Virus record (IMG/VR): IMGVR_UViG_3300031541_000022
Span: 41,155 to 105,154 of that record
DNA: 64,000 bases
Source of the DNA: a virus
Strand: one strand, 5' to 3'
This document shows, in pieces, positions 5,218-50,360 of this stretch (position 1 is its first letter; every line of letters starts with the position of its first letter). The notes under the pieces are model-generated. The model made no database searches and was not told the DNA's origin. It saw nothing but the letters and a program-made list of their open reading frames with translations. A program made the position numbers and the translations under genes.

Positions 5218-6774
5218 ATGTCCGTAAACACAGACCTAGTCAAGAAGCCGTATACCACGGAGTCATTGACACAGAGTGAATTGCGTGAATTAGCACTTTG
5301 CTCAATTAATCCGCTTTACTTCATTAGAAACTATTGTTACATTCAGCATCCTACCAAAGGTAGGATGCCCTTCACCCTTTTTGATTACCAGGAAGGGCTC
5401 ATTAACAGTTATAACGATTACCGCTACTCAATCAGCCTTCTCAGCCGCCAGACTGGCAAGTCAACATGTGCGGCTGCATACTTGCTTTGGTTTGCAATGT
5501 TTAAGCCAGACAGCACAATCCTAGTTGCAGCACACAAGCGTGACGGCGCGCAAGAGATTATGACACGATTGCGTTATATGTATGAGAGTTGCCCAGACAA
5601 CATCAGAGCGGGCGTGACAGCGTATAACAAAGGATCATTAGAGTTTGACAACGGCAGCAAAATTATTGCACAAGCGACCACAGAAAACACCGGACGCGGT
5701 TTGTCACTCTCACTAGTTTACTTGGACGAATTTGCATTCGTTCCACCTAGAGTTGCAGAGGAGTTTTGGACCTCTATTTCACCTACACTTAGCACCGGTG
5801 GTAAGTGTATCATTACTTCAACCCCAAACCAAGATGACGACCAGTTTGCACAAATTTGGAAACAGGCTAACAAGCGTGTTGATGATTATGGCAATGAAAC
5901 TGAAGTCGGCACCAATGGTTTCCGTCCATATTTGGTTAAATGGGATCAGCACCCAGATCGTAACCAAGAGTGGGCAGATGCGGAACGCGCAAAGATTGGT
6001 GATGAGCGTTTCCGTCGTGAACATGAATGCGAGTTTATTGCGTTCGACGAAACATTGATCAACTCCGTTTTCCTAAGCGAAATGGATTTGGGAATGGAAC
6101 CCATGCGCAAGCATGGTCAAGTTCGTTGGTATGACACCATACAAGACGATCAGACATATCTAGTGGCACTAGATCCTAGCCTAGGAACAGGCGGCGACCC
6201 GGCTGCTATTCAAATATTTGCTATTCCTGGAATGCGCCAGGTTGGTGAATGGCAACACAATAAGACACCAGTTCAAATGCAGATCAAAATATTGAAGAGT
6301 ATTCTGGAAGAAATTGAAAGTGAAGCACTGAATAGTGAGATCTACTATAGCGTAGAAAACAATACGCTAGGTGAAGCAGCACTTGTTTCTATCGATGAAA
6401 TGGGTGAGGAAGAACTTCCAGGAACCTTCCTTAGCGAGCCGAAACGTCGGGGTAACGTAAGGCGCTTCAGAAAAGGATTTAATACGACACACTCCACGAA
6501 ATTGGCAGCATGTGCCAAACTGAAGAGATGGGTTGAAGAAGAAACAATGAAGATTCGCAGTAAGAATCTCACTCGCGAGCTTAAAACATTCGTGGCCAGG
6601 GGGAACAGCTATGCAGCCAAGGAGGGAGAAACAGACGATTTGGTCATGGCAACCCTTTTGGCTGTCCGCATGGCGATGCAGATTGCAAAATATGACGAAG
6701 AGGCGTTTCAGGATTTGAAGGATAGCTTTGACGAAACAGAACTGCGTCGACCTATGCCTATCGGAATACTGTGA
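5218..6774 (+). CDS. terL: Terminase large subunit (T4 gp17-like)
   Basis: Walker A SRQTGKST, Walker B VYLDEFAF, TSTP motif, RNase H-like nuclease VALDPSLG and DDLVMA. Confidence 0.95.
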   Translation: MSVNTDLVKKPYTTESLTQSELRELALCSINPLYFIRNYCYIQHPTKGRMPFTLFDYQEGLINSYNDYRYSISLLSRQTGKSTCAAAYLLWFAMFKPDSTILVAAHKRDGAQEIMTRLRYMYESCPDNIRAGVTAYNKGSLEFDNGSKIIAQATTENTGRGLSLSLVYLDEFAFVPPRVAEEFWTSISPTLSTGGKCIITSTPNQDDDQFAQIWKQANKRVDDYGNETEVGTNGFRPYLVKWDQHPDRNQEWADAERAKIGDERFRREHECEFIAFDETLINSVFLSEMDLGMEPMRKHGQVRWYDTIQDDQTYLVALDPSLGTGGDPAAIQIFAIPGMRQVGEWQHNKTPVQMQIKILKSILEEIESEALNSEIYYSVENNTLGEAALVSIDEMGEEELPGTFLSEPKRRGNVRRFRKGFNTTHSTKLAACAKLKRWVEEETMKIRSKNLTRELKTFVARGNSYAAKEGETDDLVMATLLAVRMAMQIAKYDEEAFQDLKDSFDETELRRPMPIGIL

Positions 6775-48549: not shown

Positions 48550-48976
48550 AAATTCGGTGTATACCGTTACACCGCCGGACCTCACCCTTAACACGATTGG
48601 TCCCAGTGTCTTGCTCTTGGGCATTACATATGATGAGAGCAAAGCATACTCAGATGTATATGAAAAACTTTTTCCTGAAGTTGAAATCACATTCTTTGTG
48701 AGTGAGACTGGCTTCAATCCAAATGTTGCTCCTTGGTTCCGCGCAGTTGCAGGAATGGCGAGCAGCATATTTGTAAACCTAGACAACATCACAGCAGAGG
48801 AAGTATTCCTTGCTATGCAAGCTGAACATGAGAACCGTGCTATGGTTTTCTGGATCAGCCAAGAGCGAACCTATCCAGCGATGGTGAGTTTACTCAACAG
48901 TTACCAATACCAAGTTTTCAATAACGTAGAAGAGATTGAATCCTTCTTGCTAAAAGAGCATGGTAAAAACTCTTGA
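48539..48976 (+). CDS. Hypothetical protein
   Basis: Coupled ORF. Confidence 0.7.
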   Translation: MKTKNSVYTVTPPDLTLNTIGPSVLLLGITYDESKAYSDVYEKLFPEVEITFFVSETGFNPNVAPWFRAVAGMASSIFVNLDNITAEEVFLAMQAEHENRAMVFWISQERTYPAMVSLLNSYQYQVFNNVEEIESFLLKEHGKNS

Positions 48977-49001
48977 CATTCGGGTGCAGACATACTACAC
49001 T
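48973..49001 (+). promoter_or_regulatory. Sigma70-like promoter for infC-rpsU
   Basis: TTGACA-17-TACACT. Confidence 0.7.
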
Positions 49002-49040: not shown

Positions 49041-49562
49041 ATGAAACAACAGCGAGAAATTATACTCGCTAACCGTGACATTCGATTCAAGGAAGTTCGT
49101 TTAGTTACGGAAGCTGACAGCAAGGTGCTGTCAACGAATGAAGCATTGAGGCAAGCTGAAGACGCTGGCTTAGATCTTATTTTGATCAACGCTAGCGCCA
49201 AGCCTCCTGTTTGTAAGATCTTGGAATTGAACAAGTATCGTTACGAACAGAAACTAAAAGCGAAAGAAGCTGCACGGGCGCAGCGTGAATCCCGTACCAC
49301 TATCAAAGAGGTACAATTCAAGCCCAATATCGATCAACACGACTTCGAAACGAAGTGTAAGAAAATTGCTAAGTTTATCGACAAGGGCAACAAGGTTAAG
49401 GTTTTAATTCAATTTCGTGGTCGCGAACGCCAACACACTGATTTGGGATATGACATCCTAGAAAGAGTATTCCAGGAAGTTGACGGTATTGAATACGATG
49501 CAAAACCCTCTTTTGCTGGTAACCGTATTACCGCAATGTTAAAAGGAACCAAGGATGGCTAG
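49041..49562 (+). CDS. infC: Translation initiation factor IF-3 (possible ATT start at 49035)
   Basis: [24 protein letters not shown]...KYRYE, KEVQF.P.ID.HDF..K, KVK....FRGRE. Confidence 0.92.
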
Positions 49563-49800
49563 GCCAACACCAAATCAAAAGAAAACACAAAGCGGACCGC
49601 GCGGCTCAAGAGTCGAAGTCCGTGATAACAATGTAGGGCAGGCAATGCGCCGCCTAAAGAAGATCCTCCAACAGGAAGGTGTCTTCAAAGAGATGCGAGA
49701 ACGCCGTTACTTCGAAAAGCCAAGCATGACACGCAAAAAGGCTAAAGCAGCGGCTCGCAAGCGTTGGCTTAAGGAACAGGCCAAGCGCGAAAACTGGTAA
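49555..49800 (+). CDS. rpsU: 30S ribosomal protein S21
   Basis: [17 protein letters not shown]....EG...E...R.YFEKPS...K..A.RKR. Confidence 0.88.
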
Positions 49801-49811
49801 TAAATACCAGC

Positions 49812-49864
49812 AGGATGCCTTAGGGGTCCTATAAAAATCTTGCTTTTAAAAGGAGATTAAGATG
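49812..49864 (+). ncRNA. ROSE-like RNA thermometer in the hsp20 5' UTR, behind late promoter ATAAATA 49800-49806
   Basis: 5' hairpin 49812-49830; 3' hairpin AATCTTGCTT/AAGGAGATT pairs the UUGCU motif with the SD and leaves G49842 bulged. Confidence 0.75.
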
Positions 49865-50290
49865 ACAAAAGCAATTAACACACTAACTCTACCGAGCTTC
49901 CTCAATGACAGAGGTATTGGATTTGACAACTTTCTTGACACATTCGAGACACTCACTCCAAGCGGTGGATACCCTCCATACAACGTGATTAAAGACGGCG
50001 ACGACGAATACACTATCGAAGTTGCAGTTGCTGGCTTTACACAAGACGATCTGGAGATCACACAGGACGGCAAAAAGCTAATCCTATCTGCAAACAAGCC
50101 AGAGTTCGAAGGCGAAGAGCCTGCATACTTGCATCGCGGCATCAGCTCACGTAGCTTTAAGCGTGAGTTTGCACTTGCAGAACATGTAACAGTCACTGGT
50201 GCTGACCTCAAAGATGGCATCCTCAAAGTTTCATTACTACGTGAATTGCCAGAAGAAATGAAGCCACGCACCATCGCTATCGGCAAATAA
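49862..50290 (+). CDS. hsp20: Small heat-shock protein (Hsp20/IbpA-like)
   Basis: YPPYNV, IEVAVAGF, YLHRGIS.RSF.R.F.LA, A.L.DGIL. Confidence 0.93.
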   Translation: MTKAINTLTLPSFLNDRGIGFDNFLDTFETLTPSGGYPPYNVIKDGDDEYTIEVAVAGFTQDDLEITQDGKKLILSANKPEFEGEEPAYLHRGISSRSFKREFALAEHVTVTGADLKDGILKVSLLRELPEEMKPRTIAIGK

Positions 50291-50360
50291 TTACTGAGCG
50301 ATCATCAGTACCACTGTGGGAGGTGGCTACCACTACCTCCCACAACCAAAAGAGGGCAAT

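Follow-up and report, generated by a model that had tools for sequence, protein, structure and literature searches.

A short two-hairpin leader of phage hsp20 genes as a probable ROSE-like RNA thermometer

The phage hsp20 gene described here is preceded by a leader of 50 nt, reaching from a predicted transcription start at 49812 to the ATG at 49862, which is probably a short two-hairpin ROSE-like translational RNA thermometer. We infer its thermosensing role from homology of form with validated elements: a terminal hairpin in which a U(U/C)GCU motif faces the Shine-Dalgarno (SD) sequence across a bulged G, a first hairpin resembling that of a Pseudomonas thermometer, and a family of related leaders in other phages. 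The window, i.e. the whole stretch of 64,000 nucleotides that was analysed, belongs to a 110-kb viral contig of IMG/VR with a CheckV completeness of about 30%. The same contig carries genes for the large terminase subunit, SSB, helicases and ribonucleotide reductase, as well as a permuted alpha-type tmRNA. The features of the locus are as follows.

49041-49562, + strand: infC, the upstream neighbour
49555-49800, + strand: rpsU, encoding S21, with its stop codon at 49798-49800
49794-49810, + strand: inverted repeat CTGGTA-ATAAA-TACCAG (6-bp hairpin), enclosing the S21 stop and the late promoter
49799-49806, + strand: T4-type late promoter motif AATAAATA (NATAAATA), from the motif census
49812, + strand: predicted +1 (A), the sixth base past the AATAAATA motif, pairing with U49830
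49812-49830, + strand: hairpin 1, AGGAU(G)CC-UUAG-GGGUCCU, with G49817 bulged; family core (U/C)GCC...GGG
49831-49835, + strand: A/U-rich single-stranded spacer, varying in length and sequence among relatives
49836-49858, + strand: hairpin 2, the proposed sensor, anti-SD AAUCUUGCUU with AAGGAGAUU, ending 3 nt before the ATG
49862-50290, + strand: hsp20, encoding a 142-aa IbpA-like small heat-shock protein
50315-50344, + strand: 12-bp hairpin lacking a U-tract, in the hsp20-clpS gap (MFE -28.8 kcal/mol, z = -4.6)
3' of hsp20, + strand: clpS
5771-6664 of the contig (G000:C1; = L232:973-1866), outside the window: 297-aa ORF, a gp55-type late sigma factor (phrog_12791, 1.1e-86)

The leader is ordered as ctggtAATAAATAccagc AGGATGCCTTAGGGGTCCT ataaa AATCTTGCTTTTAAAAGGAGATT aag ATG. 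An earlier note on this DNA had proposed that its second hairpin places UUGCU opposite the SD with G49842 bulged, and this pairing is indeed present. The outer part of hairpin 2 consists of A49836-U49858, A49837-U49857, U49838-A49856, C49839-G49855, U49840-A49854 and the wobble U49841.G49853. Past the bulged G49842, the inner part continues with C49843-G49852, U49844-A49851 and U49845-A49850, and is closed by the loop UUAA (49846-49849). The ROSE motif UUGCU therefore occupies 49840-49844 and the SD AAGGAG 49850-49855, with CUUGCU opposite AGGAG. The 50-nt, two-hairpin organisation described in the same note likewise holds, the hairpins lying at 49812-49830 and 49836-49858 ahead of the ATG at 49862.

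RNAfold recovers the described fold when the hairpin is taken in isolation at 15-37 °C and, with the complete leader as input, at 5 °C. At 10-30 °C, the MFE structure of the complete leader is an alternative register (AUCUUG/UAAGAU plus UUUU/GAGA), specific to this phage, in which the SD and the AU of the AUG are likewise covered. The predicted stability of hairpin 2 is low, with a dG37 of about -2.6 kcal/mol. The fold of this one sequence does not differ significantly from those of shuffled versions (z = -1.34; 12 of 200 shuffles do as well), so that one sequence alone cannot show that the fold matters, and the support is comparative. The anti-SD segment UUGCUUUU (49840-49847) can also pair with AAAAGCAA in hsp20 codons 3-5 (49867-49874), which is the predicted MFE at 37 °C and above. 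We treat this second pairing as incidental, because it is absent from the nearest relative, L002.

The identity of the downstream gene, given as hsp20 in the earlier note, is supported by a Pfam HSP20 match of 6.5e-16 and by 42% identity of the protein to E. coli IbpA. The NCBIfam models for IbpA and IbpB each score about 104 bits, under both cut-offs. A nucleotide search of GenBank phages with the locus gave no match; at the protein level, 508 phage records match the window Hsp20. There is no terminator between rpsU and hsp20, and early read-through transcripts may therefore also carry the leader. At the other end of the gene, the hairpin at 50315-50344 is likely to be a 3' end or a stabiliser of the hsp20 transcript, and it may alternatively mark a processing site. 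In the syntenic L002 (2586-2682), an intact infC is missing between a 145-aa gene and rpsU, and the interval is reduced to a short stretch.

Transcription of the leader is predicted to start from a late promoter, as the earlier note had suggested. The pattern NATAAATA occurs 20 times on the + strand of the window, and 19 of these copies lie 6-58 nt upstream of a gene start. Since the census was restricted to NATAAATA, with NATAAAAA outside it, the T at the one position where the internal sequence TATAAAAA (49830-49837) departs from TATAAATA is common to all 20 motifs by construction. In five other window genes the ATG stands exactly at the sixth base past NATAAATA. These five cases fix the spacing between motif and start, which puts the predicted +1 at A49812, the first paired base of hairpin 1; the coincidence of start site and hairpin base noted earlier is thus confirmed at the level of coordinates. 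The five genes themselves (NATAAATA-5 nt-ATG, motif starts at 1132, 6778, 20586, 50667 and 54751) are predicted to yield leaderless late transcripts, an observation worth recording in a phage with its own IF3 and S21, two factors that influence start-site and leader selection.

A consensus scan for a sigma-70 promoter or a -35 box upstream of 49799-49806 found none, and the same kind of scan located a sigma-70 promoter upstream of infC (TTGACA-17-TACACT, 48973-49001). With T4 gp55 as the query, a weak match was obtained on the contig. The 297-aa ORF listed above matches phrog_12791, annotated in PHROG as 'sigma factor for late transcription', and also phrog_234 (1.5e-22); it is longer than T4 gp55 (185 aa). 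The site thus combines the hallmarks of a T4-type late promoter: ATAAATA lies about 6 nt ahead of the predicted start, a -35 element is absent, and the phage has its own gp55-type sigma factor. Given the motif census and the sigma factor on the contig, the designation as a late promoter seems well founded as far as sequence can tell, and this part of the earlier proposal stands.

The arrangement of promoter and hairpin recurs in the relatives. Among 125 distinct leaders with a detectable hairpin 1, ATAAATA lies no more than 9 nt from the hairpin 1 base in 59, and a TAnAAT box takes its place in another 24. The commonest distance between the motif end and the hairpin base is 4-5 nt, found in 31 of the 59 late-type leaders; in the window it is 5. 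Neither ATAAATA nor TATAAT is found upstream in a subset of leaders, for instance at loci L149, L154, L157, L183, L186 and L199; there a box of the form AAAAAACC...CA(C/T)TTAAC recurs immediately 5' of hairpin 1, and it may be a promoter that a different group of phages uses. As a separate observation, the stem of the inverted repeat at 49794-49810 is kept in L002 (CTGGTA-GATAAA-TACCAG).

The strongest evidence for the leader as a conserved element comes from comparison across phages. A protein search of IMG/VR returned 420 relatives, of which the best 80 loci (42-62% identity) were kept. Upstream, the loci from this set are built alike: a TATAAATA-like or TATAAT-like promoter is followed by hairpin 1, a spacer rich in A and U, (A)AUCU(U/C)GCUU, a loop of 3-6 nt, AAGGAG, 5-8 nt, and the ATG. 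U(U/C)GCU stands upstream of the SD in 79 of the 81 viral hsp20 loci found by homology, 77 of them with the strict pattern and 2 with UCGCU. When IMG/VR was scanned with a DNA pattern specifying nothing but hairpin 2 and the SD, at least 123 matches were obtained. Among the matches listed, at least 99 lie before hsp20, at least 5 before a truncated hsp20, at least 7 before dnaK and at least one before groES. Nearly all of the listed matches also have hairpin 1, although the pattern did not require it, and its core there takes the form stem-(U/C)GCC-loop-GGG-stem with the G bulged. The leader recurs in hundreds of phages, and the family as assembled here comprises about 170 distinct leaders. 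The leader, often behind ATAAATA, was seen before phage dnaK at L082, L088, L090, L129, L150, L174 and L200 and before groES at L135, and several contigs carry two copies, one before dnaK or groES and one before hsp20.

A covariance model built from seven other phages with the window excluded (R1) finds a single match in the window, at 49809-49856 (34.3 bits, E 1.1e-6 over 0.49 Mb), and none other in the 64 kb. For the pair counts we used a small clean seed (A4) with Infernal realignment; the MAFFT alignments A1-A3, which put either the SD arm or the 3' half of the hairpin 1 stem in the wrong place, were left out. Paired cells make up 97% of the alignment versus 78.5% in shuffles, a count biased in favour of structure by the fitting of the alignment to the model. 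Both partners change in ten of the 16 pairs, every one of the nine hairpin 1 pairs covaries, and sliding the partner columns by 1-3 positions destroys the pairing signal. The nearest relative L002, which is syntenic and whose Hsp20 is 62% identical, has a compensated change from A-U to U-A at the hairpin 1 base. Hairpin 2 is nearly invariant; its informative changes are the replacement of U.G by C-G where the ROSE motif varies and, in the outer pair, that of UA by CG. It hardly covaries because its 3' strand is the SD itself, and its pairing rests on conservation rather than on compensatory change.

ROSE-like elements are defined by U(U/C)GCU imperfectly paired with the SD and a bulged G (PMC11182007; PMC3669281), and the terminal hairpin of the window has precisely this pairing, as the earlier note had held. 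The leader lies in the 5' UTR of an IbpA/Hsp20 gene and has two hairpins with the SD (49850-49855) in the 3' arm of the second, in a consensus structure backed by covariation. The alternation between U and C in U(U/C)GCU is seen among the loci found by homology. The Rfam models are silent. The search with ROSE and ROSE_2 that the earlier note had suggested as a check gave no match to the window: neither ROSE (RF00435, gathering 45 bits) nor ROSE_2 (RF01832, gathering 65 bits) matches at the locus, an all-family Rfam scan of 49700-49950 returned no ROSE, ROSE_2 or ROSE_3 match, and ROSE_3 (RF02523, gathering 43 bits) has no match at E <= 10 in the whole 110-kb contig. The three models are silent on the phage relatives and the bacterial cousins too, and ROSE in particular has no match in 20 related phage loci.

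As for controls, ROSE_2 scores above its cut-off in E. coli, and ROSE_3 gives 69.2 bits on a Pseudomonas ibpA leader (unverified record OQ572409; L230:298-364). When ROSE_3 was run on 151 genomes drawn from the class to which G001 belongs, no match appeared, but the controls were silent likewise, so that this negative carries no information. As none of the three models matches the window or the related phage loci, we rejected filing the leader under any of the Rfam families, and its membership among ROSE-like elements rests on the defining motif and on cross-detection by a second model (R2; 73 sequences, alignment A6). R2 scores 22.1 bits on the ROSE_3-positive Pseudomonas ibpA leader and 16.3 bits on the ibpA-ibpB intergenic leader of E. 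coli K-12 (L229:1906-1976, minus strand).

A two-hairpin ROSE-like element of 61-62 nt is already known in Pseudomonas, where removing the bulged G fixes the gene in its repressed state and the melting of hairpin II spans 25 to 42 °C (Krajewski et al. 2013, PMC3669281). Like the window leader, the Pseudomonas ibpA element (ROSE_3) has two hairpins before an IbpA-type small heat-shock gene, the first of them stable, and a second hairpin with U(U/C)GCU/SD pairing and a bulged G, while the AUG stays outside the ROSE-register helix. The core of hairpin I is common to both, gGAUGCC-GAAg-UCGGGUCc in ROSE_3 and GGAUGCC-UUAG-GGGUCC in the window, with the same bulged G. The two differ in length (50 nt in the window against 61-62 nt), in promoter (a predicted phage late promoter against a sigma-32 promoter), and in strength: hairpin 2 of the window is AU-rich, has no flanking G-C clamps, and is predicted at -2.6 kcal/mol (dG37), compared with -7.7 kcal/mol in Pseudomonas.

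The ibpB leader of E. coli, reportedly an RNA thermometer as described by Gaubig et al. in 2011 (Microbiology 157:66), is a second close counterpart. It resembles the window in its first hairpin (AUGCUCGCC-GUCA-GGGAGCAU) and in its terminal hairpin (ACUCGCUU-CUUAG-AAGGAGA, 7 nt before the ATG), and its layout is that of the three-hairpin variants of some phages (e.g. L020, L035, L068). Unlike the window leader, it has an extra middle hairpin, lies within an operon instead of at the 5' end of a transcript, and is richer in GC, its terminal hairpin having a dG37 of -5.1 kcal/mol versus about -2.6. Since the leader shares the hairpin I core with ROSE_3 and R2 detects both bacterial leaders, it appears to be related to these thermometers; on sequence it has diverged from both the short Pseudomonas ibpA type and the ibpB leader, being shorter, weaker and AU-rich, with no G-C clamps. 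The (U/C)GCC-loop-GGG core of hairpin 1 with its bulged G is common to the phage leaders, the ROSE_3 consensus and the E. coli ibpB leader, and its geometry repeats that of U(U/C)GCU with the bulged G in the sensor hairpin.

The classical ROSE and ROSE_2 elements of rhizobial hsp and enterobacterial ibpA genes likewise place U(U/C)GCU opposite the SD with a bulged G, but they consist of three to four hairpins over about 70-100 nt. Their terminal hairpin is described as containing weak non-canonical pairs (PMC11182007, citing Chowdhury et al. 2006). Among phages, the known RNA thermometers are lambda cIII, SPbeta blyA (fourU) and a gut-phage sigma-70 fourU element (PMC11182007, 2024). They are phage-encoded 5' UTR structures controlling translation, as proposed for the window leader, but act as an alternative-fold switch or through fourU, and none is ROSE-like or linked to a chaperone. 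A full-text literature search found no description of ROSE-like elements in phages, and none of phage control of small heat-shock genes in the literature searched.

The Hsp20 clade itself is essentially viral, since its signature YPPYNVIK is nearly absent from species genomes, occurring at only 4 MAG loci in 185,579 of them; the bacterial cousins of the leader were accordingly found through the RNA model. Of 151 genomes sampled from the class to which G003 belongs (presumably Alphaproteobacteria), 10 have an R2 match to the leader, and many of the genomes with matches are 1-2 Mb in size. The bacterial matches lie before chromosomal hsp20 genes. In the small genome G087 the leader also stands before rpoH (TIGR02392, 323.5 bits) and clpB (L217:1501-1554, L225:1501-1552), and in bacteria it is therefore not confined to small heat-shock genes.

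The calculated response to temperature is gradual. The probability of a free SD rises from 0.005 at 5 °C to 0.04 at 15 °C, 0.17 at 25 °C, 0.26 at 30 °C and 0.38 at 37 °C. With G49842 deleted in silico, the helix becomes perfect and the opening is abolished at all temperatures up to 50 °C. When 35 other window genes were put through the same calculation, however, neither the masking of the SD nor the temperature response of hsp20 was distinctive, so that the melting calculation is consistent with thermosensing and is not evidence for it. A crude 'T50' is 57 for the window, 72 for the family median and above 95 for Pseudomonas and ibpB; these absolute values are unrealistically high and serve for ranking only. 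In this modelling, the weakness of hairpin 2 points to an operating range lower than 30-42 °C, and the hairpin may be largely open already at moderate temperatures.

Other readings of the same leader have to be weighed against thermosensing. It might serve mainly as an operator for its own Hsp20, free Hsp20 blocking translation until aggregates titrate it away, in which case the signal would be protein misfolding during infection, instead of or besides temperature. In E. coli, Cedecea and Vibrio, IbpA represses its own synthesis by attaching to the ROSE-like 5' UTR of its mRNA, for which Arg93 and an aromatic residue at position 34 (Tyr34) are needed (PMC10474464), and IbpA also controls the translation of rpoH (PMC10410725). 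Both residues have counterparts in the IbpA-like window Hsp20 (R97 and Y37), and they do not vary across 21 diverse phage Hsp20s. The conservation of the hairpin 1 core from Pseudomonas to phages goes beyond what a mere 5' stabiliser would need, and the occurrence of the leader before rpoH, clpB, dnaK and groES is as expected with a shared trans-acting factor. However, the equivalent of IbpA K98 is Glu in the window Hsp20, and the Arg93 equivalent is conserved in many small heat-shock proteins for other reasons (human HspB4/B5, PMC10474464). Autoregulation as the main role seems rather unlikely to us, and it is compatible with thermosensing instead of excluding it. Slightly less doubtful, although still improbable, is a broader form in which the leader is not only a passive thermometer but a shared operator of a phage and bacterial chaperone regulon (hsp20, dnaK, groES, rpoH, clpB), an IbpA-like Hsp20 binding the bulged-G hairpins and repressing until misfolded capsid or host proteins titrate it. 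If that were true, the phage would possess an aggregation sensor independent of host sigma-32.

It is also conceivable, but decidedly unlikely, that the leader damps translation constitutively and stabilises the mRNA, having come along with the gene from an ibpA-like ancestor in bacteria, temperature having no meaning as a signal in the habitat of the phage. Timed expression is already given by the late promoters, the predicted opening is gradual rather than switch-like, and the SD masking is unremarkable among the window genes, all of which would suit such a role. On the other hand, a damper would not need destabilising features, yet the bulged G and the adjacent U.G or C-G pair are kept in nearly all of the roughly 170 distinct leaders, over proteins 42-62% identical, and among the matches listed the element is restricted to heat-shock genes. 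Finally, the real start might lie downstream, e.g. from TATAAAAA at 49830-49837, which is one position off TATAAATA and would give a start 6 nt later, at about 49843; most hsp20 mRNA would then lack the anti-SD arm, and the hairpins would be irrelevant. The spacer in which this sequence lies is not conserved, L002 has no promoter-like sequence there, and the conservation of hairpin 1 and of the anti-SD would be left unexplained. We therefore rejected the internal TATAAAAA as a promoter and hold a downstream start to be extremely improbable.

In the thermometer reading that we prefer, host RNA polymerase with the gp55-type sigma factor of the phage would initiate at A49812 from AATAAATA, and some longer transcripts may arise from polymerase reading on out of the early infC-rpsU unit. 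Hairpin 1, at the extreme 5' end, is predicted to be stable and probably protects the mRNA and aids folding of the second hairpin, a division of labour that would parallel the one in Pseudomonas. Hairpin 2 would hold the SD AAGGAG against CUUGCU in a helix weakened by the U.G pair and the bulged G49842. At low temperature the 30S subunit would be kept off, and warming, presumably within the physiological range, would open the weak helix and allow Hsp20 to be translated. Late transcription would set when Hsp20 can be made, and temperature how much of it, with a possible benefit to the phage; the supply of chaperone during assembly would in this way be gated by temperature, as the earlier note had proposed.

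The mechanism itself is textbook, and we found no ROSE-like leader described in phages in the literature searched. A family of about 170 leaders that all three Rfam ROSE models miss has been overlooked by current annotation. Few auxiliary genes are commoner in marine T4-like phages and in jumbo phages than those for small heat-shock proteins. If the leader acts like its bacterial relatives, the chaperone supply of these phages would be tuned by temperature after transcription, through a control that adds to late timing and does not depend on the host's heat-shock sigma factor. The weak, AU-rich hairpin suggests a thermometer set below the 30-42 °C range of the validated ones, and such control would bear on how phage productivity responds to water temperature.
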